A stretch of DNA of 36,546 bases from Candidatus Jorgensenbacteria bacterium RIFCSPHIGHO2_02_FULL_45_20 (GCA_001779535.1 MFKJ01000003.1:1-36546), one strand, 5' to 3'; counted from the stretch's first letter, positions 1 to 36,546 are shown. Notes: generated by a model not told the origin, from the letters alone. Numbers and translations are program-made.

Positions 1-101
1 AGAAACAAATTGTCGCCTGTTCAGTTCATGCTACAATGGTCGAAGGCAAACGTCGTAAAAATGCCCATGGAGTCCAGAATAGGGTTGCATTATACATACT
101 G

Positions 102-130
102 TTGACACCCTATCCTTACCGCCTTACTTT
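102..130 (+). promoter_or_regulatory. sigma70-type promoter
   Basis: TTGACA (102-107), 17-nt spacer, TACTTT (125-130), upstream of the ATG at 169. Confidence 0.6.
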
Positions 131-168
131 TAGAAATACGCGCGTGTTATCGCGCGCAGAATAACAAC

Positions 169-738
169 ATGGATAAGATAGTATTTGACGTGGAAACGAA
201 AAACACTTTCGCGGACATAGGCGGAGAAGCGAATATGCACAAGTTTGAAATATCCGTAGCGGCGGCATACTCTTATGACAAGGACGAGTACTATTGTTTT
301 GAAGAACGGGAACTTGACGAGTTGGGAGAAATGATGCGCAAAGCGGGGCTTATTATAGGTTTTTCAAGCAAGCGTTTCGACGTGCCTATTCTGAATAACT
401 ATTTCAAATTCAATCTTGGGGCGGTTCCCCACTACGATATCCTCGAACAAATTGAGAACAAATGGGGGCGGCGGATAAGTTTGGATTTGCTTAGCGAAGC
501 GAATCTCGGAATAAGGAAAACCGGCCACGGGCTTGAGGCCATAGAGTGGTATAAAAACGGGGAAATGGAAAAACTCAAGGAATACTGCAAGCAGGACGTT
601 AAGATAACGAAGCAGATTTTCGACCTTATAAAAGCCCAAAAATATCTGTGGATTCCGCAGAGAAATAATCCGGAAATGGCGAAAGTCGAACTGAAGTACG
701 AGGAAAAAGAACCTGACCCGCAGGGCGCTTTGCTATAA
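169..738 (+). CDS. RNase H-like / DEDD 3'-5' exonuclease domain protein (RNase_H_2/YprB-like)
   Basis: 189-aa ORF with VFDVET (ExoI), FDVPIL (ExoII) and YCKQDV (ExoIII) motifs. Confidence 0.8.
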   Translation: MDKIVFDVETKNTFADIGGEANMHKFEISVAAAYSYDKDEYYCFEERELDELGEMMRKAGLIIGFSSKRFDVPILNNYFKFNLGAVPHYDILEQIENKWGRRISLDLLSEANLGIRKTGHGLEAIEWYKNGEMEKLKEYCKQDVKITKQIFDLIKAQKYLWIPQRNNPEMAKVELKYEEKEPDPQGALL

Positions 739-750
739 TTTAATTAAGAT

Positions 751-849
751 ATGTTTTTGAACCCCAAGAAACACAAAGTGCTTATATTTGTCGTGGTGAT
801 GATTCTCGCGCTTGGAATGATAGTGATGTATATGCCGCTATTTTTTTAG
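751..849 (+). CDS. small single-pass membrane peptide (32 aa)
   Basis: Not in the ORF track. Reads MFLNPKKHKVLIFVVVMILALGMIVMYMPLFF*: basic N-terminus plus one hydrophobic helix, filling the gap between two co-oriented genes. Confidence 0.55.
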   Translation: MFLNPKKHKVLIFVVVMILALGMIVMYMPLFF

Positions 850-861
850 TGGATCGAATTT

Positions 862-2085
862 ATGCGCGACAGGGATGTGTATAAAATAATCTCGGAAGAA
901 TCAAAGCGGCAGGCAAACACGCTTAACCTTATTGCCTCCGAAAACTATGTTTCGAGCGACGTGCTTGAAGCGCTCGGAAGCGTTTTTACGAATAAATACG
1001 CCGAAGGGTACCCGCGCGCGAGGTATTACGCGGGCGGAAAAAATGTTGACGATATCGAAGAATTGGCAAAATCGCGGGCGATGAAGTTGTTCCGTCTTTC
1101 CAAAGCCAAATGGAGCGTTAATGTTCAGCCGTACTCCGGTTCCCCCGCCAACCTTGCCGTATTAAGCGCGCTTATTCCTATCGGTGAAAAGATAATGGGA
1201 ATGTCGCTTGATGCCGGTGGACATCTGACGCACGGCCACAAGGCGAGTATAACAGGGAAACTATGGGAACAGACGCGCTATGGAGTTGACAGGATAAGCG
1301 AAGAAATTGACTATGGCGAGCTTTTGAACAGGGCGCTCATCGAGAGACCGAAATGCATAATAGCCGGAGGAAGCGCGTACTCGCGCATAATTGATTTTTC
1401 AAGGATGCGCACCATCGCTGATGAAATTAACGCTCTGCTTTTCATTGATATGTCGCACTTCGCGGGGCTTGTCGCTGGCGGCTTTTATCCGTCCCCTTTC
1501 AAATATGCCGATGTCGTTATGACGACGACTCACAAGACGCTCCGCGGTCCGCGCGCCGGCGTAATATTTTCAAGAAAAGAATTTTCGGCGGCAATAGACA
1601 GGTCGGTGTTTCCCGGCATACAGGGCGGGCCGCATATAAACCAGATTGCCGCCATCGCCGTAGCGCTTAAAGAAGCCGCCGCGCCGTCATTCAAAAGCTA
1701 CGCCAAACATGTAGTCGAGAACGCTAAAATACTCGCGAATGAGTTGGACGCTTTGGGCTGGAAAATCATCTCCGGAGGAACGGATACCCACCTGTTTTTG
1801 GTTGATACTATGTCGCGCGGCATCTCCGGCAAAACAGCAAGCGATTTACTTGAGGGTGTCGGCGTAGTTGTTAATAAAAATATGATTCCGTTTGACGAGC
1901 GAAACCCGGGCGATCCTTCGGGAATCCGTATCGGCACGCCCGCCATTACAACTCGCGGTATGAAGGAAAAAGAAATGAAAATAATCGCTGGAATCATAGA
2001 TAAAACGCTTGTCAAAAAATCCCGCCGTCCGGAAATCGAATCGCAAGTAAAAGAACTTTGCGGCAAATTTACGATGAAAAATTGA
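862..2085 (+). CDS. glyA: serine hydroxymethyltransferase
   Basis: LIASEN, NKYAEGYP, GGHLTHG, TTTHKTLRGPRAG (PLP lysine), SGIRIGTPA motifs. Confidence 0.98.
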   Translation: MRDRDVYKIISEESKRQANTLNLIASENYVSSDVLEALGSVFTNKYAEGYPRARYYAGGKNVDDIEELAKSRAMKLFRLSKAKWSVNVQPYSGSPANLAVLSALIPIGEKIMGMSLDAGGHLTHGHKASITGKLWEQTRYGVDRISEEIDYGELLNRALIERPKCIIAGGSAYSRIIDFSRMRTIADEINALLFIDMSHFAGLVAGGFYPSPFKYADVVMTTTHKTLRGPRAGVIFSRKEFSAAIDRSVFPGIQGGPHINQIAAIAVALKEAAAPSFKSYAKHVVENAKILANELDALGWKIISGGTDTHLFLVDTMSRGISGKTASDLLEGVGVVVNKNMIPFDERNPGDPSGIRIGTPAITTRGMKEKEMKIIAGIIDKTLVKKSRRPEIESQVKELCGKFTMKN

Positions 2086-2111
2086 CAATTCGCGAGGTGC
2101 CGTAATACAAT
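2082..2111 (+). promoter_or_regulatory. sigma70-type promoter
   Basis: TTGACA (2082-2087), 18-nt spacer, TACAAT (2106-2111). Confidence 0.6.
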
Positions 2112-2123
2112 GAACTAAATTAT

Positions 2124-2231
2124 ATGGACTTCGCGAGTAACCTTTGGACGATTATTCTTTTACCGCTTGCGGCGCGCTTGCTTGTCGCCGCGGGCAACCG
2201 GTCGGAGGTTTTTTGCAGAGGTTCTCGATAA
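2124..2231 (+). CDS. putative leader peptide (35 aa)
   Basis: MDFASNLWTIILLPLAARLLVAAGNRSEVFCRGSR*, just downstream of the promoter and upstream of a terminator-like hairpin. Confidence 0.45.
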   Translation: MDFASNLWTIILLPLAARLLVAAGNRSEVFCRGSR

Positions 2232-2252
2232 AACAAAAGAGGAAGTTTGCAA

Positions 2253-2287
2253 AAAGCCCCCGACAAAAATCGAGGGTTTTGTTATTT
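2253..2287 (+). terminator. leader terminator-like hairpin (candidate attenuator)
   Basis: aaagcccccga-caaaaa-tcgagggtttt followed by gttattt. Confidence 0.55.
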
Positions 2288-2321
2288 AATAACCGAATTA
2301 ATGTTTTTATAGGAGTTGGTT

Positions 2322-2765
2322 ATGTCTGAAATCATACTTTTTACGTTGTCAGATTGTACGAAAAGCATGGAAATTTTCACCGAAATAAATAACAAAGATG
2401 TTATTGGACAGATTTATCTGTCCTCGTTAGAAATTTCCGCGGATTTAATTAAACCGATGTCGGCATGCAAAATTGCCCTTTTTGACAAGCCATTCCCACA
2501 AATAAGAAAGAGAGGAGGAAAAGAATTTAGATATCTTCAACCAAACGCACAAATAGCCCCTATTTGGGCGAAAAGTGCGGATTGGGTAGTTCAAATCTCT
2601 CCTAACATGAAGAACATACGCAGATGTGCATTGCACATCTGTAGTAGTTTTTTACATCATCGAGAAGAGAGAGAAAGAAACGGGTGGTTCCCGTGGGGGG
2701 AAAAGCCCAAAAAAATAGATAAAGACAAACAGGAAGCGCTTGGTAAAACTACAAGCGCTTGGTAA
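2322..2765 (+). CDS. hypothetical protein
   Basis: ORF track 2316..2765; AGGAG at 2311-2315 favours the ATG at 2322; no recognisable motif. Confidence 0.6.
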   Translation: MSEIILFTLSDCTKSMEIFTEINNKDVIGQIYLSSLEISADLIKPMSACKIALFDKPFPQIRKRGGKEFRYLQPNAQIAPIWAKSADWVVQISPNMKNIRRCALHICSSFLHHREERERNGWFPWGEKPKKIDKDKQEALGKTTSAW

Positions 2766-2772
2766 AATCATC

Positions 2773-2808
2773 GTCCCCCGACCCATAAAGTCGGGGGACA
2801 ATCTTTTA
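2773..2808 (+). terminator. intrinsic terminator
   Basis: perfect 10-bp stem gtcccccgac (2773-2782) / gtcgggggac (2790-2799), then a T-rich tract. Confidence 0.7.
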
Positions 2809-2849
2809 TATCTGCCCGCTATTGTTAATCAAGCGCCTGCGCTGTTAAG

Positions 2850-3677
2850 ATGGTTTTAATGATTATAGATGGTAAGAAAATAGCCACAGAGATAATCGAT
2901 AAGCTGAAACAGCTTGAAAAACCGAAGAAATTCCTCGCGGCGTTTTTAATTGGTGAAAATTCGGCCTCCGAAAGTTTTATAAAACAAAAAGAAAAAACCG
3001 CGGCGGCTCTCGGCGTTGATTTCAGGACTTACAAATTTTTAAACGATATATCGCAGGATAAGCTTCGAAAAGAAGCGTTGAAAATAGTATTAGGCGGAAA
3101 ATGCGGCGGTGCCATTGTCCAGCTTCCACTCCCCGCCCACATCAATTCGCAGTATGTTCTGAACGCTATTCCGCGCGAGAAAGACGTTGACGTTCTCGGC
3201 GAACGCGCGCTCGGAGCATTTTACGCCGGACGGAATCCGGCGCTTCCTCCGGCTGTCGGCGCGTTTGAAGAAATATCGCGAGCGGCAAACTATCCGCTTA
3301 ATACTTCGCGGGTTGCTGTTGTCGGTCTCGGTAATTTAGTCGGCAAGCCGATAGCGGTTTGGTGCGCGGGCAAAGTACGGGAACTTTATCTTTTGGATAA
3401 GGGAAGCGACTTCGCGGTTTTGAAGCAGACGGATATAGCGGTGTGCGGCGCTGGAGTCCCCGGACTTATCAAACCGGAAATGTTAAAAGAAACCGCGCTT
3501 GTGGTTGACTTCGGTTACGGCTTAAAGAATGGTAAATTCTCCGGCGATTTCGACTCCGAAAGTTTAAAAATTAAAAATTACAAATTAAAAATTAACTTCA
3601 CTCCCACTCCCGGCGGTACCGGCCCCATTCTTGTCGCGAAACTATTTGAAAATTTTTTCACGCTCGCAAAAGAATGA
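2850..3677 (+). CDS. folD: bifunctional methylenetetrahydrofolate dehydrogenase/cyclohydrolase
   Basis: IIDGKKIA, IVQLPLP, KDVD, TPTPGGTGP motifs; start may be the Met at 2859. Confidence 0.93.
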   Translation: MVLMIIDGKKIATEIIDKLKQLEKPKKFLAAFLIGENSASESFIKQKEKTAAALGVDFRTYKFLNDISQDKLRKEALKIVLGGKCGGAIVQLPLPAHINSQYVLNAIPREKDVDVLGERALGAFYAGRNPALPPAVGAFEEISRAANYPLNTSRVAVVGLGNLVGKPIAVWCAGKVRELYLLDKGSDFAVLKQTDIAVCGAGVPGLIKPEMLKETALVVDFGYGLKNGKFSGDFDSESLKIKNYKLKINFTPTPGGTGPILVAKLFENFFTLAKE

Positions 3678-3736
3678 ATAACCGCGCCGCAAGCGGCGGG
3701 ACATCAGAGCGGGGACTTAATAAAAAATCAGATATT

Positions 3737-4777
3737 TTATTCTACCTCGGCCGGCGTTACTCCTTTCTTCTCCGCCGTTTCTTTTATTTTCTTTTTTATC
3801 GCTTCAAGCGTTTTTTTGTCCTCTTTGAGCTTCAACCGCGCGTTATCGAATCCAACTCCGAGTTTTTCTCCTTCAAACGACAAACTCGCGCCGGCTTTCG
3901 CGATAACGCCGTATTTAATTCCGGTATTCAAAACATCCGACTCATACGAAACACCCTCACCGTACATAATATCGAATTCAGCAATCCTGAACGGCGGAGC
4001 AACTTTGTTTTTTACGACTTTCGCTTTCGTCCTGTTCCCTATCACCTCCTCGCCTTTTTTCACCTGCGCGATGCGGCGCACGTCTATGCGCACCGAACAG
4101 TAAAACTTCAGAGCCATCCCGCCCGGAGTCGTTTCCGGATTGCCGAACATTATCCCTATTTTCATCCGTAGCTGGTTTATGAAAATTATAATCGTGCTGG
4201 TTTTGGCCGCTATCGCCGTAAGTTTTCGGAGCGCCTGCGACAAAAGCCGCGCCTGAAGTCCGATATGCTGCGCGCCCATTTCTCCCTCGATTTCCGCCCT
4301 TGGCGTAAGCGCCGCCACAGAATCCACGACAACAATGTTTATTATTCCGGAGCGTACCACGCTTTCAAGAATGTTCAGCGCCTCTTCGCCGTTGTCGGGC
4401 TGGGAAATGATAAGGTCTTTTACCTTCACGCCTATTCTCGCCGCGTATTCGGGGTCGAGCGCGTGTTCAGCGTCTATGAACGCCGCTTTCCCGCCGCGCT
4501 TCTGAACTTCGGCTATCGCGTGGAGAGCGAGAGTCGTTTTCCCCGAACTCTCTGGCCCGAAGATTTCTATAATTCGTCCTTTCGGCAATCCGCCGCCCAA
4601 AGCCATATCGAGCGAAAACGAGCCGGACGGAACAACTTCTACTTTCGTATGAAGATGATTGCCGAGAGTCATCACGGCTCCCTCGCCAAATCTGGAGCGA
4701 AGCGACTCCATGAGCGACTCTATACTGTCTCCTATCGGTTTACCGTCCGTTTCTTTTACATTTTTCTTTGTATTCAT
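3737..4777 (-). CDS. recA: recombinase A
   Basis: GPESSGKTT Walker [33 protein letters not shown]. Confidence 0.99.
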
Positions 4778-4786
4778 TTTTAGATA

Positions 4787-5491
4787 TTATAATCCGCCGC
4801 CGGATAACTCGCCACTCGTTTCGAATTCCGGAACGATTGCGGGGGCGCTGGTTGCGACTTCAAAGAAAATTCTTTTTTCGATTGTGTATTCCTTGCCGAG
4901 AAATTTTTTCACGTTGAATTTAAGCGTATTAAATCCGGGCGAAAGTTTTATTTCTTTCTCAAAACTCCCGTCGCTCGAAAGATAAATCTGTTCGCCGTTC
5001 AGAATCAAGTCGTTTGTGGGAGGCGTCTTTCCTTTCAGCGTGAAGTTTTCCTCTTTGACTACCATATTGTCTTCCACTCCCGAAAGCGACAGTTCCGGCG
5101 TTCCGAAATACGAATAAAGCCGTACAAAAACATACACCGCCACAATAATTCCCAAAACGGAGAACGCGACAATCTTTTTGTTTAACCGGCGCCTTAGGAA
5201 CATGTTGCCCGGAAGCGTATTACTCGTTCCGGTTTTGCGCACAAAATCAGCATCTTTGAAGTGTTTAATCCAGACCTGTTCACCATCCAATCCAAGCGCC
5301 TTTGATATTTTTATGATGTATCCGTGAAGATATGGGGATGGGGGCAATTCCTCCACGCGCTTTTCGATGAGAAGCGACAAAAAACGGTCGGAAATGCCGG
5401 TTGTTTGCGATAGATAATCAAGCGACACGCCCTTGGCGCGCATCGCTTCAAGTATAATATCGGAGAAACTGTTCTTAAACTCATCTGTCAT
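4787..5491 (-). CDS. RodZ-like membrane protein: N-terminal HTH, one TM helix, C-terminal Ig-like domain
   Basis: HTH_25-like segment (LSQTTGISDRFLSLL...ELPPSPYLHGYIIKISKALGLD), TM helix and beta-rich tail; lies between ftsK and recA; start moved to MTDEF. Confidence 0.75.
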   Translation of the reverse strand: MTDEFKNSFSDIILEAMRAKGVSLDYLSQTTGISDRFLSLLIEKRVEELPPSPYLHGYIIKISKALGLDGEQVWIKHFKDADFVRKTGTSNTLPGNMFLRRRLNKKIVAFSVLGIIVAVYVFVRLYSYFGTPELSLSGVEDNMVVKEENFTLKGKTPPTNDLILNGEQIYLSSDGSFEKEIKLSPGFNTLKFNVKKFLGKEYTIEKRIFFEVATSAPAIVPEFETSGELSGGGL

Positions 5492-5625
5492 AATGACTAT
5501 TTTATCGCGTGAGGGTTTTTGGCACAAGCGCGCGTTTCTTATGTAACGCGAATCTCCCACCATTATAGGCGTGGGCTTCATACCGTGGGGAGACCACATT
5601 CTTATCCGCCGTCTATGACAATTTA

Positions 5626-7743
5626 TTATAACAAAACATCTCTCGGTTTCGCGCCTTCGCCGGGGCCAACTACTCCGCGCTCTTCCATCATATCAAGGAG
5701 TCGCGCGGCGCGGGCATAGCCAACTTTAAGACGGCGCTGGAGTAAAGACGCGGACGCTTTGCCGGCGCTTCTTATGACTTCAACCGCCTCCTCATAGAGT
5801 TCGTCGTCGTCCGCTTTTTCCTCAAATGCTTCAAAATTCGGAGCGTCAAGCGAAGGACGGTCATTTGCTTCCTCAAGCGACGAGCCGTTTATGAAGTCCT
5901 GCGAAAGAGACGGATTATTTTTCTTTATAAATTCAACAACTTTTTTTATCTCATCTTCCGAGATGTACGCTCCCTGAACGCGTTTCGGTTTTGACAATTC
6001 GGACGAAACGAAAAGCAAGTCCCCTCTTCCGAGAAGTTTTTCAGCTCCGGCGGAATCAAGAATCGTGCGCGAATCAACCTGGCTTGCGACTTGAAGAGCG
6101 ATTCGAGTCGTAATATTCGCCTTGATAAGACCTGTTATAACTTCAACCGATGGCCTCTGCGTTGATACGATCAAATGAATGCCAGTCGCGCGCGCCATCT
6201 GGGCGAGGCGGATTATCGCGCCCTCAACTTCCCTCCCGTATGAAGACATAAGATCGGCGAGTTCATCTATCACTATTAATATGTAAGGCAAGTCGCTGTG
6301 GTTTTTGTGATAACTTTTTATATCGCGAGAACCCGATTCAAGAAGAAGCTGATACCTGCGGTCCATTTCCTGTATCGCCCACCTAAGAGAACCAAGCGCT
6401 TTTTTGTTTTCCGTTATAACAGGCGCGAGAAGATGAGGAATGCCGCCGTATACGGACAGTTCGACTCTCTTCGGGTCAACCAATATGAGTCGCAGCGTGT
6501 CCGGTGAATTTTTGAAAAGAATGGACAGTAAAATCGCGTGTAGCATTATTGATTTTCCGCTTCCTGTGGCGCCGGCAACTAAAAGGTGCGGCATTTTGCT
6601 TATATCCTGGAATATCGGTTCGCCGCTTACATTTCTACCGAGACCGAACGTGAGTAAGCTGGATTTTTGAAATTCAGGATAAAGCAATATGCTTCCGAGA
6701 CGCACTATCGCCGCCGCCTTATTGGGAACTTCTATGCCAACGAGCGATTTTCCGGGAATAGGCGCCTCGATTCTTATAGGGTGCGCCGCGAGCGAAAGCG
6801 CGAGGTCTTGATTCAACGCTATGATTTTTGACAAACGAACCCCCTCCGCCGGTTTCAATGTGTAGCGCGTTACGGTAGGTCCGACGTTTATTTCTCCCAT
6901 TTCAACCGATATACCGAAACTTTCAAGCGTGCGCTTTATCATATTCGCGTTCGCGCGCAGGTCGCCTATCGTCGGTTTTTCTATCGTTGAAGAAAGAATG
7001 GAAAGAGGCGGGGCGATGTAATTTTTTATCCGCTTCTGTTTTAATTCCGTTAATTTTTCCGAATCGGTAACAAATTCCGGAATTTCATCACGCGCGCCGG
7101 AAGAACTCTCCCCTCTTTTTTTGTCTCTGGATAATTTCTCCTTGGTATTTTTCTGCGCGTATTCCGGCGTATTTTGCTCCGCGATTTTTTCCTCATCCGC
7201 GTAATTTTCGTAGGCGTCTTTTTTACGGAAAAGCGGAAAGTTTATATTAAGATTCAGCGGACGGTTGAGCGCAACCAAAGACGATATCACGAAAACAATA
7301 AATGTTATAAGAATGGACGCTGGAGTTCCGAACGGCTGTTTTAATTTTCCTGTAAAGCTACCCAACAGTCCCCCATGTCCGTTCGCGATAATGTCTATAA
7401 ACCCGAGCCCGGATATGAAAATAAGAATACTCGCTCCGGCGGTTATCCATATATCGCGCTTGAAGTCGCGTTCTTCGTCCGACAACAATGAAAACGCGAG
7501 TATGAAAAAAATCATGGGGAATAAGAAATACCCCCATCCGAAAAATTTAGTTAACGCATTGTATACCGAATTACCGAACGGCCCCGCCTGTCTAACTCCC
7601 GCGAGCAGGAATAATATTGCTATTCCCAAAAAAAGAACAACCCAAATAGTTTTCAAAATGTCCGGATGAAGAGAATCGGAAATTTTTGCGCTTTGTTTTT
7701 TCACGGCTGGAGTTTCTTTCTTATTTTTTGATTTTTTTGCCAT
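5626..7743 (-). CDS. ftsK: DNA translocase FtsK/SpoIIIE
   Basis: N-terminal TM helices, PHLLVAGATGSGKS, IVIDELADLM, TQRPSV, gamma domain SLLQRRLKVGYARAARL. Confidence 0.98.
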   Translation of the reverse strand: MAKKSKNKKETPAVKKQSAKISDSLHPDILKTIWVVLFLGIAILFLLAGVRQAGPFGNSVYNALTKFFGWGYFLFPMIFFILAFSLLSDEERDFKRDIWITAGASILIFISGLGFIDIIANGHGGLLGSFTGKLKQPFGTPASILITFIVFVISSLVALNRPLNLNINFPLFRKKDAYENYADEEKIAEQNTPEYAQKNTKEKLSRDKKRGESSSGARDEIPEFVTDSEKLTELKQKRIKNYIAPPLSILSSTIEKPTIGDLRANANMIKRTLESFGISVEMGEINVGPTVTRYTLKPAEGVRLSKIIALNQDLALSLAAHPIRIEAPIPGKSLVGIEVPNKAAAIVRLGSILLYPEFQKSSLLTFGLGRNVSGEPIFQDISKMPHLLVAGATGSGKSIMLHAILLSILFKNSPDTLRLILVDPKRVELSVYGGIPHLLAPVITENKKALGSLRWAIQEMDRRYQLLLESGSRDIKSYHKNHSDLPYILIVIDELADLMSSYGREVEGAIIRLAQMARATGIHLIVSTQRPSVEVITGLIKANITTRIALQVASQVDSRTILDSAGAEKLLGRGDLLFVSSELSKPKRVQGAYISEDEIKKVVEFIKKNNPSLSQDFINGSSLEEANDRPSLDAPNFEAFEEKADDDELYEEAVEVIRSAGKASASLLQRRLKVGYARAARLLDMMEERGVVGPGEGAKPRDVLL

Positions 7744-28369: not shown

Positions 28370-31357
28370 ATGAAGTATAACTTTTCGGCGATTGAGAAAA
28401 AATGGGCCGCGAAATGGCTCAAAGAAAAAATATACGAACCGGATTTCGGCAAATCAGGAAATAAAAAACGCAAGTTTTATAATCTGATGATGTTTCCTTA
28501 TCCGTCGGCTGAAGGGCTGCATGTGGGGAACGCGTACGCGTTTATTGGAAGCGACATTTACGGGCGTTTCAAGCGTATGCAAGGATATGACGTTTTTGAG
28601 CCGATGGGGCTTGACGGGTTTGGCATACACTCGGAAAATTACGCGCTTAAAATAGGAACCCATCCGTTAAAGCAGTCGGAGGCGTCAGAGAAAAGATTTT
28701 ACGGACAGCTCAAAAACATAGGCAACGGCTTTGCGTGGGATGAGCGCCTCGAGACGTATAAGCCGGAATACTACAAATGGACGCAGTGGATTTTCACGGA
28801 AATGTGGCGGAACGGACTCGCGTACCGCAAAAAACAAGAAGTGAATTGGTGTCCGTCGTGCAAAACGGTGCTGTCGGATGAGCAGGCGGAGGGAGGGAAA
28901 TGCGAGAGGTGCGCGAGCGAAGTCGTAAAAAAAGAGTTGGAACAATGGTTTTTCCGCATCACAAAATACGCAGGCAAACTTTTGAAAAATTTAGACGAGA
29001 TTGACTGGTCGGAAAAAGTCAAAATAGCGCAAAGGAATTGGATAGGAAAATCAGAAGGGGCGCTTATAAAGTTCAAAGTTCCAATATCAAATATCAAAAA
29101 TAAGGAAGAGAGTGAAATTTATTTGGAGGTATTTACAACAAGGCCGGATACGCTTTTTGGCGCGACGTATATGGTGGTGGCGCCGGAACATGAGATAATC
29201 GGCCGGTTGCGAGATAAAATTCAGAACAATAAGGAAGTCGAAAATTATATTTTTAAGTCCAAGAAGAAAACAACCGAAGAAAGAATCGAAAACAAGGAAA
29301 AAACAGGCGTTGAATTGAAAAGTATAAAGGCGATAAATCCCGCGAACAATGAAGAAATTCCGATTTTTGTCGCGGATTATGTTCTTATGGGCTATGGAAC
29401 GGGGGCTATTATGGCAGTCCCCGCGCACGATGAGAGGGATTTTGAGTTTGCAAAGCAGTTCCAACTACCGGTGCGGCAGGTGGTTGCGGAGGAAACAGGC
29501 ATGAAACGCGAAAAAGAAGAACGGCGCGACGGAGTATTTGTAATTGTTTTCGACCCAAATCGGCAAAAGTATGCGGCGGGACGGCAGGAAAACGGGATAT
29601 TGCGATTATTTTCCGGAGGAGCGGATACCGGCGAAAATATGAAAAATAGCGCGCTTCGCGAACTTTCGGAAGAAAGCGGCTTGTATGATTTTCAAAAAAT
29701 GGACGAGATCGGAACAGTATTCGCGCATTACCATAACAGCTTACGAAACGTGAATAGGATTACGAAAGCGGTAAGTTTTCTTGTTGTTTTGAAAAGCGGT
29801 AAGACAAAGCCGGTCAAACTTGAGAAGCATGAAAAGTTCACGCTTGAATGGACAACAGCGGAAGATATGGAAAAAAACTGGGAAGAGCACAATAAAGAAG
29901 GGGATTTCGACCACTGGATAAAATTTTTACGGCAGTCGGTGGGACAATGTATTGAGTTCGGATTCGACAAGAAAAACGACCCAGAGCGGTACAAAACCTC
30001 CGCGTACGAGGGCGATGGCATACTTGTTAATTCGGAAAATTTCACCGGCATGGATTCCGAAAAGGCGCGATGGAAAATCACGGAATTTGTCGGCGGGAAA
30101 AAACAGACACAATATCGGCTTCGCGATTGGCTGATTTCCCGCCAAAGATACTGGGGACCTCCGATTCCCATGATTTTTTGCGAGAAGTGTTCGGTTTCCG
30201 GCAATGGGGAACAAAAAAATATGCCGGGGTGGTACACCGTACCAGAAAGCGAACTTCCGGTGAAGTTGCCAAATATTTTGAATTTCCGGCCGCGGGGTAC
30301 GGGAGAATCGCCTCTTGCGTCTGAAAAAAAGTTTTACGAAACAAAATGTCCGGCGTGCGGAAACGCGGCGCGGCGCGAAACGGACGTTTCGGATACATTT
30401 CTCGATTCCGCGTGGTACTACATCGGATACCTCATGAAAATTTCAAATTTCAAATTTCAAATTAAAGATTCGCGATTTTCTGAAATCGCGCGGCAGTGGC
30501 TTCCGGTTGATGCGTATATCGGCGGGGCGGAGCACTCGGTTTTACATCTTCTTTATGTGCGGTTTGTCGCTATGGCGCTAAAGGATTTTGGGCACATCAG
30601 CTTCGAAGAACCGTTTCCGAAATTCCGCGCGCACGGGCTTTTGGTAAAAGATGGGGCTAAAATGTCCAAGTCGAAGGGGAATGTTGTGAATCCGGACGAA
30701 TACATAAATAAATTCGGCGCGGACACTTTCAGAATGTATCTAATGTTTCTCGCGCCGTTTGAGTGCGGCGGGGACTTCAGAGATGGCGGGATTTTGGGTA
30801 TTTCGCGTTTTTTGGAGAGAGTTTGGAAGATAGGAACGCAAGGCGAGTTTTCGGATTCTCCGGCTTTAGGCGATACCGAACACCTGCTTCACAAAACAGT
30901 AAAGAAAGTCGGTGAAGATGTTGAATCGCTCCAGTACAATACCGCGATCAGCGCGCTTATGATTTTTCTCAATAAATTTGAAAAGACGAAGAACCGTTCG
31001 CTCGAGCATTTCAGGACTTTTCTTCTGCTTTTAGCTCCGTTCGCGCCGTTTGTAGCGGAAGAACTTTGGCAGATGACATTGGGTGAAAATAAATCCGCCG
31101 GTTTTCCGGGGTTCAATTCAATTCACAAAGCGGAGTGGCCGTCGTATGACGCCAAAAAACTTGAAGCGGATTATTTTGTGCTTGCGATTCAGGTGAATGG
31201 TAAAGTTAGGGATGAAATGGAGGTACCAAAAAACATGCCGCAGGGAGAAATAGAAAAACACGCGCTTCAGAGAGAGCGTATACTTAAGTTTATGGAAGAA
31301 AAAAAGCCAAAAAGAATCATATTTGTGCCGGGTAAGATTCTGAACATAGTTTTATAA
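28370..31357 (+). CDS. leuS: leucine--tRNA ligase with inserted Nudix hydrolase domain
   Basis: MFPYPS..GLHVGN, FTTRPDT, GTGAIMAVPAHD, SRQRYWG, KMSKS, IQVNGKVR; perfect Nudix box at 29615-29683. Confidence 0.97.
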   Translation: MKYNFSAIEKKWAAKWLKEKIYEPDFGKSGNKKRKFYNLMMFPYPSAEGLHVGNAYAFIGSDIYGRFKRMQGYDVFEPMGLDGFGIHSENYALKIGTHPLKQSEASEKRFYGQLKNIGNGFAWDERLETYKPEYYKWTQWIFTEMWRNGLAYRKKQEVNWCPSCKTVLSDEQAEGGKCERCASEVVKKELEQWFFRITKYAGKLLKNLDEIDWSEKVKIAQRNWIGKSEGALIKFKVPISNIKNKEESEIYLEVFTTRPDTLFGATYMVVAPEHEIIGRLRDKIQNNKEVENYIFKSKKKTTEERIENKEKTGVELKSIKAINPANNEEIPIFVADYVLMGYGTGAIMAVPAHDERDFEFAKQFQLPVRQVVAEETGMKREKEERRDGVFVIVFDPNRQKYAAGRQENGILRLFSGGADTGENMKNSALRELSEESGLYDFQKMDEIGTVFAHYHNSLRNVNRITKAVSFLVVLKSGKTKPVKLEKHEKFTLEWTTAEDMEKNWEEHNKEGDFDHWIKFLRQSVGQCIEFGFDKKNDPERYKTSAYEGDGILVNSENFTGMDSEKARWKITEFVGGKKQTQYRLRDWLISRQRYWGPPIPMIFCEKCSVSGNGEQKNMPGWYTVPESELPVKLPNILNFRPRGTGESPLASEKKFYETKCPACGNAARRETDVSDTFLDSAWYYIGYLMKISNFKFQIKDSRFSEIARQWLPVDAYIGGAEHSVLHLLYVRFVAMALKDFGHISFEEPFPKFRAHGLLVKDGAKMSKSKGNVVNPDEYINKFGADTFRMYLMFLAPFECGGDFRDGGILGISRFLERVWKIGTQGEFSDSPALGDTEHLLHKTVKKVGEDVESLQYNTAISALMIFLNKFEKTKNRSLEHFRTFLLLLAPFAPFVAEELWQMTLGENKSAGFPGFNSIHKAEWPSYDAKKLEADYFVLAIQVNGKVRDEMEVPKNMPQGEIEKHALQRERILKFMEEKKPKRIIFVPGKILNIVL

Positions 31358-32412: not shown

Positions 32413-32475
32413 GCATAAGTTCAGATACATATATTCTCATCTTTCGATGAGTGCCATATGTATCTGAACTTATGC
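32413..32475. repeat. perfect 20-bp inverted repeat with nested hairpin
   Basis: gcataagttcagatacatat (32413-32432) / atatgtatctgaacttatgc (32456-32475); inner ctcatc-tttc-gatgag. Confidence 0.9.
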
Positions 32476-32481
32476 AACTTT

Positions 32482-32964
32482 TCAGAAGTTTCTTGAAATA
32501 TATTTAGGGACAATACCCAAACTTAAATATCTCTGTTGAATATCTCGTGGTAAATATTTGAAATCTCTGATGCGATGACGGCAGTTTTTACTTCTACATT
32601 CGCAATCCATTTCCCAATCATTTTCATCCATTGTCGTAGAATAATCCCAAGTTATTTCATCGCCCTCATTTATTTTTTCTACCGCTATCAGAAAAACCTT
32701 TTTACTATTAATTTTCAATCCGGTATTAGGACTACACGAATGATTAAAATAATCATCTATACCGCCCGATGGCCCCATATACAAATTTTCTCCTAATTGA
32801 ACATAATGATCTTCGACTCCATTGTAGGGCGTTGGCAATTCTTTATAAGTAAAAAACTTTCCGTGAAATTCAAAAATTATTTCGCCCTTACCGAATTTCT
32901 TAATGGCAAAAACCCCTTTACCATTTTGAGTATTTTTAACGACAAGATTTTTTTCACTTTCCAT
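32482..32964 (-). CDS. SET domain protein-lysine methyltransferase
   Basis: GKGVFA, NHSCSPN, EITWDY and post-SET CECRSKNCR; own ATG at 32964, in frame with the upstream HTH. Confidence 0.9.
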   Translation of the reverse strand: MESEKNLVVKNTQNGKGVFAIKKFGKGEIIFEFHGKFFTYKELPTPYNGVEDHYVQLGENLYMGPSGGIDDYFNHSCSPNTGLKINSKKVFLIAVEKINEGDEITWDYSTTMDENDWEMDCECRSKNCRHRIRDFKYLPRDIQQRYLSLGIVPKYISRNF

Positions 32965-33175
32965 GATATATTTCATTAAATCATCAATTGAAACACCCAA
33001 CCCTTTGGCGATTTTTGCCATGGTTTCAATTGTAGGATTCAGCGTTGCGCCGGACTCAATCTTAATAATTACATTGTAAGCAATATCAGCAAGCTTCGAG
33101 AGTTTATCCTGCGAAATATCCAGTTTTTCTCTGTACTTTTTGATATTCTTCGCAATTGTTGGTAATTCTTTGCAT
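32965..33175 (-). pseudogene. XRE-family HTH regulator, in frame with SET; natural start appears frameshifted
   Basis: IAKNIKKYREKLDISQDKLSKLADI...IESG...NPTIETMAKIAKGLGVSIDDL; the ATG at 33175 is out of frame and there is no stop before SET. Confidence 0.6.
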
Positions 33176-33278
33176 AAATCCTTGGAAAATATTAAACTTA
33201 AATTAGTTTTTATACGGTTAAAGATTATCATACATTCGTATAAGATATAATATTTAAGTGTATTTATGAAAACACTTC

Positions 33279-33297
33279 GTATAAAAATGAGTTGTGC
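33279..33297 (+). mobile_element. attI-like recombination site
   Basis: GTATAAA-AATGA-GTTGTGC has the same geometry as the attI1 core (CCCTAAA-ACAAA-GTTRRRY) and heads the cassette array. Confidence 0.55.
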
Positions 33298-33353
33298 GAC
33301 ATTTGTTCGCGCGCCTAGATAACTTTTTATAACACTATAAATTACTTTATTGT

Positions 33354-33935
33354 ATGGAAGATAGAATTAATAAAATACTCTCTTTTTTGCAGGAGATTGA
33401 AAAATACAAAACCGTTGAAAGAGAAATGTTTTCTTCAAACTTAACTAGAACAGAAAGTGATGCCGAACATTCTTGGCACTTGGCAATGTTTTTGCTTCTC
33501 TTTGAAAAAGAGCTTCCGGAAAATCTAGATATGAAAAGAATGCTGAAACTCGCCTTAATGCACGATTTGGTAGAAATTTATGCAGGAGATACTTTTGCTT
33601 TTGATAAAGAAAATCAAGCCACAAAAAAAGAGCGCGAGTTTCAGTCAGCGAAGAAGCTCTTTTCCCAACTGCCAGAAGATTTACATAAAGAATTTGACGA
33701 TTTATTTAGTGAATATGAAGAAGTAAAAACCTCTGAAGCAAAGATTGTGAAATCTTTTGACAAAATACAACCAATTCTCCAAAATCTTTGCTCTGATGGA
33801 AAATCTTGGAAAAAACACGGCATCACTTTCTCGGATATTGATGAATATAAAAGAAAACACATGGAACACAACGGTTTTGTATTAAAAATATATGAAAAAT
33901 TACTGAATGATGCAAAAAAGAGGGGTTTGATTTAA
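33354..33935 (+). CDS. HD-domain phosphohydrolase (YfbR/HDDC2-like)
   Basis: ESDAEHSWHLA, LMHDLVEIYAGD, SFDKIQP. Confidence 0.9.
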   Translation: MEDRINKILSFLQEIEKYKTVEREMFSSNLTRTESDAEHSWHLAMFLLLFEKELPENLDMKRMLKLALMHDLVEIYAGDTFAFDKENQATKKEREFQSAKKLFSQLPEDLHKEFDDLFSEYEEVKTSEAKIVKSFDKIQPILQNLCSDGKSWKKHGITFSDIDEYKRKHMEHNGFVLKIYEKLLNDAKKRGLI

Positions 33936-33994
33936 CGGCGCGCTCACAAACGCAAGGGGACGCTGCGCTTTCGTCGCTATCGCTCCTCACCCTC

Positions 33995-34096
33995 GTATAA
34001 CAAGGGATAAAAGGAAAATTGCTCGGCTCGCCCCTCACCCAAATTTTTCTTCCACTCCGTTCCAGAAAAACTTCAGACGATGCCGATACGTTAGCT
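33995..34096 (+). repeat. attC-like site 1 (possibly hybrid)
   Basis: GTATAAC...GTTAGCT; stem tcggctcg/cgatgccga with one extra base; inner tttttct/agaaaaa. Confidence 0.55.
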
Positions 34097-34182
34097 GAAA
34101 TATTAAAAAATTCTTTTCGGCCCCTGCGGGGCATTTAATCGGGACAAAATTATTTTTTTATTTTTTTGAACTCAACAAACAC

Positions 34183-35325
34183 ATGAACGAAAAATACATT
34201 CCATCAAAAGAAGAAATAGAGCTAGCTGAAGAAATTGCTGTGGAGGATCATATGACTTCTGAACAAAAAAGTGATTCTGAATTTAGGGTTAAAAACTGGG
34301 AACAAGAGCAAGCGCCCTGGGTTCCATTTGACGATGACGATATTGATGAAAATTTTGAACGTAAGCCAGCTACTCCTGAACAAAAAGAAGATATGGATAG
34401 AAGATTAGCGGAGCTTGCTGACGCTTTCGAGGGTTCAGATATTAATTGGCACATGGACGGTGCTTTGAATGTTTCTTTAATGAATGGTGGATATATTGGA
34501 AATCATAAAGATGTAGATTTATCAATTGAAAAAAACGAACTTGCAAAACTTGAAGCTCAACTGCTCAAAAAAGGATTCGGATTATTTTTATCAAGAACTG
34601 AGGACAAAACAAAAAATAAAGTAATGCGAAGAGCCGGACATGCTGATTTTGCAGATTCAGACACCGAACATATGCTTATTGCCGCAATCGACGAAAATGG
34701 CCAAATCAGGAGAGATAAATCTTTAAATTTTGTTGACACGCATATTGTCGAAAGAAATGCAGACGGGCAAGCGCTTGGAAATTCGGGCGTAGTAATACCA
34801 GATAAATGGACAAAACCTTATCCCGTTGAATTTCAAGGAAAATCAATCAATTTATCACATCCAGGCAAGGTTTTGTATTACAAATTACACCAAGGGCGAG
34901 GTTATGACACTACTGACATCCAACGATTAGTTGAAACTGGAAAGGTTACAGAAGAAGATGTCGCGGATGTAGAAAAAGTATTTGAAAGCGAGTTTACTGC
35001 AAACATTGTACGTGGACGGAAAGTATTTGAGGCGGTTGCAAAACAATTAATGCCAGAAATGAATACCGACCAGATTATTGATGTTATTTTGCAACAGCGT
35101 GAATTAACAAAAGGAGGTGAAGAAGCACGAGAATTTTTTAGGCCGTTTGCACAAAAAATTTTTGAATCAGATGACAAGACAACGGATGCGATGTTAAAAA
35201 TTGGAATTGAATTATTTAAAGTTGAAGAAAAAGATAATCAAAAACGTGAGGAAATTAATCGAGTTAGACAAGCAGTCGTTGACGCGCAAAAATTAAAACA
35301 GATTCGGGAGGAATTAAAAAAATAA
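34183..35325 (+). CDS. nucleotidyltransferase-fold protein (ANT(2'')/Lnu-like N-terminal domain)
   Basis: WHMDGALNVSLMNGGYIGNHKDVDL resembles the W-x-x-GG...H-x-DxD signature; helical C-terminal extension. Confidence 0.6.
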   Translation: MNEKYIPSKEEIELAEEIAVEDHMTSEQKSDSEFRVKNWEQEQAPWVPFDDDDIDENFERKPATPEQKEDMDRRLAELADAFEGSDINWHMDGALNVSLMNGGYIGNHKDVDLSIEKNELAKLEAQLLKKGFGLFLSRTEDKTKNKVMRRAGHADFADSDTEHMLIAAIDENGQIRRDKSLNFVDTHIVERNADGQALGNSGVVIPDKWTKPYPVEFQGKSINLSHPGKVLYYKLHQGRGYDTTDIQRLVETGKVTEEDVADVEKVFESEFTANIVRGRKVFEAVAKQLMPEMNTDQIIDVILQQRELTKGGEEAREFFRPFAQKIFESDDKTTDAMLKIGIELFKVEEKDNQKREEINRVRQAVVDAQKLKQIREELKK

Positions 35326-35393
35326 AAAAATAATTTTGCCCCGATTAAATCTTTTGTCTAACGACAAAAGCGAAAAGAATTTTTTAATACATC

Positions 35394-35468
35394 AGCTAAC
35401 ACGCAATATCCGCAAGGGCTAAGGCCACATCCGCTAAGGCGGACGTCGGATATTGCGAAACGTTATGT
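35394..35468 (+). repeat. attC-like site 2
   Basis: AGCTAAC...GTTATGT with perfect 11-bp stem cgcaatatccg (35402-35412) / cggatattgcg (35447-35457). Confidence 0.75.
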
Positions 35469-35506
35469 GCAATAACTTTTAAGGGTCATACGCTTACTAA
35501 ACAATA

Positions 35507-35923
35507 ATGCGTGAAACTAATATAGTTGAAAAGTTTCTTGCGTCAGTTATCAATGTGGCTGTCGTCGGGATAGTTTTCTTTCCATTTATATTTTCAGATG
35601 TTAGCTCATTGATAAAAAAACTCATTCTCATTGTCATATTTCTGCTTTATAATCTACTTGTTCTTATATTCAACAAGAATAGGTGTATTGGAATGGTGTG
35701 TCTCAGGACAAGGTGGAAAGAAAACTATCCATTTGTTAACCAAGCGATCTATATATTGCTGTACACGCTTAGCTTTTCAACTCTTTTGTTTCATGTATAT
35801 TTCCTGTTCGATTTATTTTTGTTGAATATGATTTTTCTTCAGCTCCCCATGGTGGTATTGAAAAAGAATACCTTGCATGGTTATTTATCTGGCAAGATGA
35901 TTACTGTAAAAACGAGCCCTTAA
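35507..35923 (+). CDS. RDD-like membrane protein
   Basis: hydrophobic helices; KFLASVIN, RCIGM and NTLHGYLSG echo RDD-family motifs. Confidence 0.55.
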   Translation: MRETNIVEKFLASVINVAVVGIVFFPFIFSDVSSLIKKLILIVIFLLYNLLVLIFNKNRCIGMVCLRTRWKENYPFVNQAIYILLYTLSFSTLLFHVYFLFDLFLLNMIFLQLPMVVLKKNTLHGYLSGKMITVKTSP

Positions 35924-35970
35924 AAATTACATCCGACTTTTTAGTTTTGCTGTAATTTAGAGTATAATGA

Positions 35971-36050
35971 GATTAACAATTAAGTAAGAATATTAAGGTT
36001 TTGTGCCTAGAAACCAAAGTGCAGGACTTCAGATATTCTTAACGTTATGT
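35971..36050 (+). repeat. attC-like site 3
   Basis: GATTAAC...GTTATGT with 9-bp stem taagaatat (35985-35993) / atattctta (36033-36041). Confidence 0.6.
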
Positions 36051-36118
36051 GAAATAGCCAGAAATTTCTTTGTTATTTTAGAATTTTTTGGCAATTTATT
36101 TCGGTCGAACATAGCTTG

Positions 36119-36127
36119 TGATATAAT
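36119..36127 (+). promoter_or_regulatory. extended -10 promoter inside cassette 4
   Basis: TG-A-TATAAT, with AAGGA RBS before the ATG at 36160. Confidence 0.55.
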
Positions 36128-36159
36128 TTAAGCGTTTAATAATTATTAAGGAAAAAACT

Positions 36160-36384
36160 ATGTCAGAACAACAAAAAGGTTTTGAAGGAAAACCTGAAAG
36201 TCCTTCGCCAGAAGAAGAAAAAAAGGAATTGTCTTTATCCCCCAATGAAGTGCACACGATGTCATATCTAATAGATAGAGAATTACTAGACTTAAAAAAA
36301 GAAAAGAGACCAGACGATGATGATTATACAAATAAGTTGAAGCAATTATTTTTAAAATTGCAAGGAAGAGAGTTTGATAGCTAA
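36160..36384 (+). CDS. small charged hypothetical protein (74 aa)
   Basis: ORF with RBS, sitting exactly between the inverted arms of cassette 4. Confidence 0.7.
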   Translation: MSEQQKGFEGKPESPSPEEEKKELSLSPNEVHTMSYLIDRELLDLKKEKRPDDDDYTNKLKQLFLKLQGREFDS

Positions 36385-36546
36385 TCTATAAATAAATTGC
36401 CAAAAAATACATTAAGGAAAAGAAATTTCTGGCTACATCACATAACAGCGTGTATCTGGATACGGAAAATTGGCGCAAAAATCAAAAACCCCGATGCAGA
36501 GCATCGAGGTATGATCTCTTCGTTTAGAGTAAATCGAATAGAGTAG

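Follow-up and report, generated by a model that had tools for sequence, protein, structure and literature searches.

Gene cassettes with long inverted arms in an integron-like array of a Candidatus Jorgensenbacteria genome

What kind of element sets several genes in tandem, each between inverted repeats of its own? The question is raised by the 3′ end of a contig of Candidatus Jorgensenbacteria bacterium RIFCSPHIGHO2_02_FULL_45_20 (GCA_001779535.1, MFKJ01000003.1:1-36546). The stretch analysed here (36,546 nucleotides (nt); hereafter the window) is this entire contig, C3, from an assembly of 608 kb in 31 contigs that is 96.5% complete. From position 33291 on, it carries four co-oriented genes, encoding an HD-domain protein and proteins of 380, 138 and 74 amino acids (aa), which a first-pass annotation made from the sequence alone had described as cassettes enclosed by long inverted repeats, here called arms, in a non-canonical integron-like system. 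The description of the system holds, as we find covarying attC-like junctions, an attI-like leader, co-oriented cassettes (48 of 50) and R′ boxes that match the R″ box of their own cassette. We consider it probable that positions 33215-36546 belong to an integron-like cassette array in the chromosome of an ultrasmall bacterium of the candidate phyla radiation (CPR; Patescibacteria), of which they form the part next to the leader, and that the arms are outward extensions of the R″ and R′ boxes. What the analysis establishes is how the array is built, that the arms are general and covary, and that array and recombinase are linked.

Two of the four cassettes carry arm pairs that were reproduced as first described. 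In cassette 2, the left arm (34090-34167) consists of the R′ box GTTAGCTGA, an outer arm, a GC hairpin (34120-34132) and an inner arm, and the right arm (35316-35400) of an inner arm, a hairpin (35351-35370) and an outer arm ending in the R″ box ...TACATCAGCTAAC. The outer segments (34090-34119 and 35371-35400) are complementary at 28 of 30 positions and the inner ones (34133-34167 and 35316-35350) at 34 of 35. Because a small hairpin separates the arm segments on each side, their pairing would give a four-way structure. The enclosed gene (34183-35325) encodes the 380-aa protein, which weakly matches a nucleotidyltransferase fold (Pfam Aminoglyc_resit, 4e-08, residues 75-143), and its stop codon falls within the right arm. 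Cassette 4 has a left arm at 36044-36101, of a type referred to below as type B and followed by about 40 nt more that are conserved with relatives and contain TGTGATATAAT, and a right arm at 36390-36446 ending in ...TACATCACATAAC. Here the outer segments (36044-36071 and 36419-36446) are complementary at 26 of 28 positions and the inner ones (36083-36101 and 36390-36408) at 19 of 19, around a gene for the 74-aa protein of no known family (36160-36384). When 33291-36446 was shuffled 300 times with its dinucleotides preserved, inverted repeats never went beyond 21 matched bases, and 19 were reached in 5 of the 300; the cassette 2 pair lies beyond the shuffles, and the 26 matches of cassette 4 exceed their maximum. 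The 3-kb array holds 3 of the 16 long-range inverted repeats of at least 20 nt listed in the 608-kb assembly.

The arms proposed for cassettes 1 and 3 stand in part. Their best local arm scores, 8 and 10, do not rise beyond the non-self 95th percentile (10) and are not above chance taken alone. However, both pairings begin at left position 12 and resume after an insert of 36-40 nt in the right arm, and the same register recurs elsewhere in five other cassettes with GC-rich right ends, with inserts of 43-66 nt. Cassette 1 (33291-34001) contains the HD-domain gene (33354-33935; Pfam HD_3, 5.7e-47) and has a right end of this GC-rich class, with 40 nt inserted ahead of the weak arm (33937-33950), and a weak R″ profile match. 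Cassette 3 (35462-35976) contains the gene for the 138-aa protein of no known family (35507-35923), a degenerate right end and a borderline arm pairing; a separate 17/17 inverted repeat (35568-35584 and 35714-35730) lies inside its open reading frame (ORF). It was correctly noted that all cassettes begin with GTT and that TAAC closes each intact right arm.

Three copies of the boundary motif ACGTTAKSTGMAATA lie in the array, and the rest of the present genome has none in that form. Of 400 further genomes from this order, 11 contain it, and the reversed motif, used as a control, gave one match in 401 genomes. Several of the matches in relatives lie in a similar setting, where the left end GTTAnnnGAAAT... 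is complementary to a right end ...ACATCnnnTAAC that follows several hundred bases later. Site profiles seeded with the motifs of the present array and later iterated showed that the two junction sides alternate regularly along the relatives' loci, and consecutive R′/R″ sites delimited 52 cassettes. After removal of two exact duplicates, 50 cassettes from 26 loci remained, among which related cassettes are not independent, so that the figures are descriptive; window cassettes 1 and 3 fall below the detection threshold and stand outside this set.

Counting a cassette as armed when left positions 12-40 equal the reverse complement of its own right end at 16 or more of 29 positions, 30 of the 50 cassettes are armed, against 90 of 2450 non-self pairs (3.7%). 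A model in which the right arm of one cassette pairs with the left arm of the next, as a palindrome across the junction, was ruled out, as none of 18 across-junction pairs matched. Folding of the cassette ends joined by a linker gave a median of 54 inter-arm pairs versus 8 for non-self ends, and 32 of the 50 cassettes exceeded the non-self 95th percentile. That end-to-end pairing in classical integrons covers only about 7 bp, as the first-pass annotation stated, agrees with the available part of PMC5027507. Judged from sequence complementarity, most cassettes of the present system appear to be closed by 45-75 bp instead of the usual seven. Fifteen cassettes form the GC-rich right-end class, and seven of these, two of them window cassettes 1 and 3, resume pairing at left position 12 after an insert of 36-66 nt. 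The insert itself (e.g., window 33951-33990 and L041:5920-5990) resembles the 3′ half of the junction centre (...GCTACGCTACGG...). In 37 of 50 cassettes, positions 10-11 are AA at the left end and TG once the right end is reversed, a figure that is partly ascertainment since the seeds contained the motifs. The cassettes are 322-3413 nt long and mostly single-gene, with the longest ORF on the cassette strand in 48 of 50, and 62 cargo ORFs match 62 Pfam families, including methyltransferases, Fic/DOC, NUDIX, hydrolases and transporters. By analogy, this cargo is comparable to the accessory pool of chromosomal integrons.

Are the arms the property of the genes that they enclose? The first-pass annotation had called them cassette-specific, and this does not hold in the sense of gene-specific. 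Type B arms, those of window cassette 4, occur nearly unchanged in two other genomes around unalignable cargo, in cassettes of 434 and 730 nt, and thus surround three unrelated cargos in three genomes. Type A arms, those of cassette 2, also enclose the gene of a 165-aa protein that resembles the cassette 2 protein in its first 36-41 residues only, and they occur around two-gene cassettes as well. The arms do differ between cassettes within the window, as had been observed, but they belong to families that recur elsewhere. Among these arm relatives, the positions that differ do so in both arms, and the small side hairpins vary in sequence and keep their hairpin form. The expectation that arms would travel with the cassette and covary is borne out by these paired differences, but not by a close homologue of the cassette 2 gene that has no right arm. 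The cassette 2 gene was found in none of 60 relatives; its homologue in loci L018-L020 is a gene 86% identical with an unrelated 3′ region, and the left arm is about 95% alike (a visual estimate) versus 80% over the whole alignment. Another locus, L024, is 98.6% identical over 33606-34401 and then diverges within the cassette 2 gene. Because its tail matches nothing in the present genome, a rearrangement and a chimeric contig are not distinguishable here.

The junctions between the co-oriented cassettes are imperfect palindromes with the layout R″ (...TAAC), L″, a variable centre, L′, a spacer and R′ (GTT...). Junction 2 (35401-35461), with L″ CGCAATATCCG, L′ CGGATATTGCG and the spacer AAAC, has an attC-like core hairpin whose predicted single-stranded DNA (ssDNA) fold (-21.8 kcal/mol, z -6.33) was equalled by none of 200 shuffles. 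It belongs to an alignment of 28 short junctions from many genomes (A3), on which pairs were counted. The AAC and GTT are invariant in 28 of 28, 97% of the cells of the L″/L′ helix are paired, and 8 of its 11 pairs are changed on both sides. The covariation score of this helix is 0.366 versus 0.153 in shuffles, with 0 of 500 reaching it, and slid partners give at most 0.085. The junctions are also conserved in sequence, e.g., in the central CACCCAAATTT, and the spacer is asymmetric (A versus AAAC). No conserved bulge or extrahelical base was seen in the L helix of the 28 junctions. ACATC (or ACTTC) precedes both AAC-ending segments of the alignment, as ...ACATCnnnnTAAC at R″ and ...ACATCAGATATGCCGAAAC at L′, and the site therefore has an internal direct repeat. 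An Rfam search at E values up to 5 returned only chance microRNA and sRNA matches.

The remaining junctions of the window are less regular. Junction 1 (34002-34089) is a hybrid attC-like site, in which L″ AAGGGATAAAAGG does not match its own L′ CAGACGATGCCG; the two are of different partner types, and the partners are seen in other sites. Junction 3 (35977-36043) is a weak attC-like hairpin ending in ...CTTCAGATATTCTTAAC before GTT, with an R′ profile match, and the 5′ part of junction 4 (36447-36546; L″ AGCGTGTATCTGG...) has an R″ profile match (E 4.5e-07) and is cut by the contig end.

The R boxes indicate where recombination may take place. R-core positions 4-9 match the R″ of their own cassette at a mean of 4.82 of 6 positions, perfectly in 24 of 50 cassettes, compared to 3.50 of 6 (perfect in 0 of 18) against the R″ of the same junction and 3.62 for random pairs. 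As far as sequence can indicate it, this match of the R core to its own R″ is what classically marks a crossover at G|TT.

A recombinase is linked to such arrays in relatives. The leader (33215-33290) has direct repeats TTCGTATAA at 33235-33243 and 33276-33284 and ends in ...GA|GTT. Four relatives have recombinase-proximal leaders that align with it and share both repeats and this end. Four bases from the first leader repeat, where the relatives have the recombinase, lies the start of a gene with HTH_3 and SET domains (Pfam; 32482-33231, minus strand), which occupies the divergent place of the relatives' array recombinase. An IntI-like tyrosine recombinase, for which the first-pass annotation suggested a search of the genome, is missing, as neither IntI nor a member of the relatives' recombinase family is present in the 96.5%-complete assembly. 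The genome encodes one tyrosine recombinase, which is Xer-like and scores 109 bits on the integron-integrase model TIGR02249 (cut-off 265). In locus L041, a 271-aa tyrosine recombinase is divergent from a leader and eight cassettes, which are followed by large opposite-strand genes. Five site-bearing genomes encode a recombinase of 275-291 aa plus a second, weaker-scoring Xer-like gene product (303-337 aa). In four of the five, an array or the end of the contig adjoins the recombinase; in the fifth, the sites that come after it are all weak. The five recombinases share 43-69% identity with each other and 31% with the sole recombinase of the present genome.

Compared with solved structures, the recombinase family scores 141 and 139 bits with archaeal XerA, 136 with VchIntIA and 80 with XerD. 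On TIGR02249 the relatives' recombinase reaches 202 bits against the cut-off of 265, in two stretches, and the alignment with VchIntIA is likewise in two stretches, with 21 residues where VchIntIA has 64 (about 43 fewer). With these 21 residues in place of 64, the IntI additional domain is absent. The family comprises at least 5775 proteins at E 1e-40 or better, all under generic names, in at least 562 species genomes. Among the 80 record titles listed, most name CPR lineages and a minority bear the labels Gammaproteobacteria, Bdellovibrionales, Pseudomonadales or Actinomycetota. Family members are also found in records labelled Altiarchaeales archaeon, Gammaproteobacteria, Bdellovibrionales or Actinomycetota (e.g., L053, L059 and L071).

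Positional counts were made on the best 80 recombinase loci of the at least 562. All 71 seed-profile site matches lie upstream of the recombinase and are divergent from it (335 kb), with none in 639 kb downstream. Iterated profiles found sites in 39 of 43 loci with at least 1.5 kb of upstream sequence, and two or more in 26. A contig end lies within 700 nt of the 5′ side of the recombinase in 32 of 80 loci and of the 3′ side in 3 of 80. The arrays probably explain many of these contig ends, and therefore the accessory gene content of these genomes is likely under-assembled.

From the features above we infer excision as circles, folding as a single strand and a role for the arms along the following lines. 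Excision at or near G|TT would make the right arm, the junction and the left arm of a cassette contiguous in the circle, where the first 30-80 nt of the cassette would pair with its own last 30-85 nt. In the circle, a single long and imperfect palindrome, of about 224 nt in cassette 2, would then enclose the crossover point within its stem and leave the cargo to form the loop. The long rod that the first-pass annotation imagined for an excised circle is supported by prediction: the cassette 2 circle junction is predicted to fold into a 224-nt rod of -83.0 kcal/mol on the top strand and -89.6 kcal/mol on the bottom one (z about -19 to -21), compared to -36.8 and -38.4 kcal/mol for the same junction in its array context. 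A fixed 2-nt mismatch beside the R box (left AA, right CA) would make the strands unequal: the top strand has A.A and A.C where the bottom strand has T.T and T.G. According to the available part of PMC5027507, mispairs of the G:T kind in classical attC sites favour the bottom strand, which is the one recombined. The AA/CA mismatch may act as a comparable bottom-strand mark. In integrons, the folded site is held by the additional domain of IntI. A long stem would hold the site folded for a recombinase of 270-290 aa that is IntI/XerA-like and without this domain, and by analogy the arms may compensate for the missing domain. Because of the predicted circle-junction fold and the bottom-strand mismatch pattern, we interpret the arms as a putative outer stem, belonging to a very long attC hairpin that would form once the cassette is excised.

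Several observations weigh against this interpretation or against the array as a working system. Junctions 1 and 3 fold poorly (z -1.09 and -1.38), and stem mismatches other than the fixed one have no strand bias (15 G.T on the top versus 15 on the bottom strand). In 8 of the 30 armed cassettes the R cores match at 7 of 9 positions or fewer, which a simple G|TT crossover does not predict; such cassettes, with differing bases 4-8, lie in L041 at 6078, 6818 and 8347 and in other loci. The profiles were seeded from the present array, so that cassettes with very different ends are unsampled. The L018-L020 homologue of the cassette 2 gene keeps the left arm and has no right arm, and arms are therefore dispensable for keeping a cassette in an array. 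Circles are not visible from the assembled contigs, which are the only public-run data compared. Finally, the absence of both IntI and the relatives' recombinase family counts against it; because the array-associated recombinase is missing from the assembly, the array of the present genome would be a relic or served in trans.

The arms might instead act within the array. On single-stranded DNA, e.g., the lagging-strand template, they could pair across the gene, juxtapose the flanking sites and thereby promote or block excision. We regard this as unlikely, even though the arms start directly at the R boxes of both flanking sites and the partner is the cassette's own and never across the junction (0 of 18). 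Such pairing would compete with R″/R′ pairing inside each junction hairpin and must span 0.3-3.4 kb of cargo, and the present data fail to discriminate it from the circle model.

It is also improbable that the arms are a functionless trace of how cassettes are made or mended, with a 5′ module copied in inverted form to the 3′ end, e.g., by template switching at microhomology. The history of cassette 2 fits such copying. The inner part of its right arm is the complement of the L018 left arm at 35 of 35 positions, with one change in the window's own left arm, and at that change the right arm keeps the L018 left-arm state GGGGC while the window left arm reads GGGAC. The homologue without a right arm, the arm start within a run AAAAAAATAAA that is common to the gene end, and the unrelated cargo of the arm families point in the same direction. 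On the other hand, in 60% of the 50 cassettes, which come from many CPR lineages, the match still covers 16-29 positions, while the arms of different cassettes are unrelated, the side hairpins change in sequence yet remain hairpins, and the 2-nt mismatch is fixed, whereas decay would be expected of neutral copies.

We think it very unlikely that the arms are expression modules (a left terminator or insulator with a promoter, and a right terminator) or that they pair the 5′ and 3′ ends of an RNA. The left arm of cassette 2 indeed contains a GC hairpin followed by T-rich sequence, its right arm contains a stop codon and a hairpin, and the conserved type B left module includes TGTGATATAAT. However, the complementarity includes stretches outside the hairpins and starts exactly at the R box, and a promoter and terminator scan found no excess over shuffles (12 vs 11.4 and 2 vs 2.4). 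Moreover, the type B left arm would lie outside the cassette's own transcript, because the -10-like box is downstream of it. Transposon-like passenger units of the mobile insertion cassette (MIC) or miniature inverted-repeat transposable element (MITE) type, moved by a transposase acting on terminal inverted repeats, would account for genes bracketed by repeats with the conserved tips GTTA...TAAC, but hardly for non-uniform arms (3.7% of non-self pairs match), for covarying hairpin sites in a single orientation between units, for an adjacent tyrosine recombinase, or for the lack of a transposase among the window genes from 28370 on and the 62 cassette ORFs (top 25 Pfam families; no dedicated search was made), and we consider them extremely unlikely.

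Outer stems of long attC-like hairpins thus remain our preferred reading of the arms, and a broader view of their origin is tentative. The CPR might carry a sister system of integrons across many lineages, with a short IntI/XerA-like recombinase that lacks the additional domain and palindromic sites of 150-230 nt, in which the arms serve as a portable chassis (R box, stem, small hairpins, leader and stop codon) that is loaded with new ORFs.

Does the array extend beyond the window? Profile matches in the present genome are confined to contigs C3 and C2, the latter (1-6400) with attC-like sites at 5079-5243 and 5774-5866 (5079-5866 overall; profile search). Past window position 36509, contigs of three public runs carry the letters that open C2. 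Because public contigs run from 36509 into the start of C2, and given the site matches there, the array probably continues on C2. The stretch is contained in 20 public runs from 11 studies, for which only Logan assembled contigs were compared; parts left uncovered and joints of undetermined content in these contigs carry no information on excision. In four public runs the unitigs break at the junctions. In one run (X1), depth reaches up to 555 at the junctions versus about 17-20 within the genes, and contigs link type A or type B arms around other content.

Upstream of the array lie the genes for LeuRS and a lamin-tail-domain protein and then, on the opposite strand, the HTH_3-SET gene. In four genomes of the same genus and one of the same family, the LeuRS and lamin-tail-domain genes are followed by a protease-like gene and not by an array. 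GTTAG-rich repeats in a relative's genome (G003), considered as array repeats, turned out to be a different repeat. The LeuRS of the window (28370-31357) has a NUDIX domain inserted at residues 385-509, and the LeuRS of four relatives from the genus and one from the family (808-849 aa) are without this insert; in one of the five, an ORF of 228 aa on its own matches the NUDIX insert. NUDIX is also among the cassette cargo families. Between the lamin-tail-domain gene and the end of the HTH_3-SET gene, a perfect 20-bp hairpin (32413-32475; arms 32413-32432 and 32456-32475) has a core CAGATA/TATCTG similar to the junction L boxes. Elsewhere in the genome, contig C25 carries a 69-nt perfect inverted repeat (181-249 and 2312-2380) around about 2 kb, and C26 (19266 and 20039) and C28 (16698 and 17422) carry perfect palindromes of 39-42 nt, each present twice about 750 nt apart.

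These results bear on how integrons are defined and on how cassettes arise. The additional domain is held necessary, yet arrays with other hallmarks of integrons adjoin a recombinase without it. At least 562 species-level genomes encode such a recombinase, mostly from a radiation in which our literature searches met with no reported integrons. How cassettes are made is a long-standing question, and one arm pair around unrelated genes points to a reusable frame, which makes the origin of cassettes testable by comparison. If the sister system exists, it would preserve an otherwise unknown cassette-building process, and perhaps also a step from early in the evolution of integrons out of Xer-type recombination. 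A recombinase acting on long, easily designed hairpins could also, if confirmed, be a useful tool.

How does the system compare with those already known? Full-text searches gave us no account of integrons, or of arms like these, from CPR, Patescibacteria or Parcubacteria; the available parts of PMC9668308 and PMC9024848 make no mention of CPR, and the supplementary taxon lists of both could contain such genomes. As given in the available part of PMC9668308, which cites Messier and Roy (2001), an integron is defined by an IntI tyrosine recombinase with an additional domain near patch III. By additional domain and TIGR02249 score, neither the present genome nor the relatives' array recombinase provides such an integrase. 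A recombinase adjacent to and divergent from attI and the array is seen in relatives, while the present genome has the HTH_3-SET gene there. The sites are attC-like, with palindromic R″-L″...L′-R′, AAC/GTT and a structure conserved with covariation (28 junctions). The 5′ end is complementary to its own R″ (4.82 of 6 versus 3.50, and 3.62 at random), and the cassettes are co-oriented (48 of 50) and mostly single-gene, with diverse cargo.

The system shares with sedentary chromosomal integrons, such as the Vibrio VCR arrays, a recombinase divergent from an attI-like leader (in relatives), co-oriented and mostly single-gene cassettes, R″-L″...L′-R′ sites with AAC...GTT, a cassette start complementary to its own R″, sites alike in sequence within a lineage, and diverse accessory cargo. 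Unlike classical integrons, it has a recombinase without the IntI additional domain and below the integron-integrase threshold, end-to-end pairing of 45-75 bp versus about 7, a crossover point inside the palindrome, no conserved extrahelical L-helix bases seen and CPR hosts, and the present genome is without the recombinase. In being a site array with no integrase in the assembly, it resembles CALIN, clusters of attC sites lacking an integron integrase, as characterized in the available part of PMC9024848. Unlike in CALIN, an attI-like leader persists here. The sites are attC-like by alignment and covariation.

The pdif or Xer modules of Acinetobacter plasmids use 28-bp XerC/XerD sites in alternating orientation and the housekeeping Xer recombinases. 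With Xer/dif, pdif and the folded single-strand attP of CTX-type phages, the present system shares a recombinase as near to archaeal XerA as to IntI and modules between inverted site halves. The R′ box TTATGTGAAAT also resembles what we take to be the XerD-binding arm, which is a lead rather than a test. Unlike in pdif, the boundaries here are hairpin palindromes of 60-220 nt in one orientation, and the relatives have a dedicated recombinase besides a separate Xer-like gene; the long single-orientation hairpins and this second recombinase set the array apart from pdif or Xer modules. In mobile insertion cassettes and MITEs, passenger genes lie between uniform inverted repeats and the copies are scattered. 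The array resembles these in that passenger genes lie between inverted repeats and the units lack mobility genes of their own, but its arms are not uniform and its units stand in tandem, separated by recombination sites. With 3.7% non-self arm matches and a boundary motif confined to the array in the present genome, it hardly belongs among them. Overall, the system is integron-like in its leader, sites and cassettes, but its recombinase falls outside the definition of an integron integrase, and its palindromes differ in length and placement.

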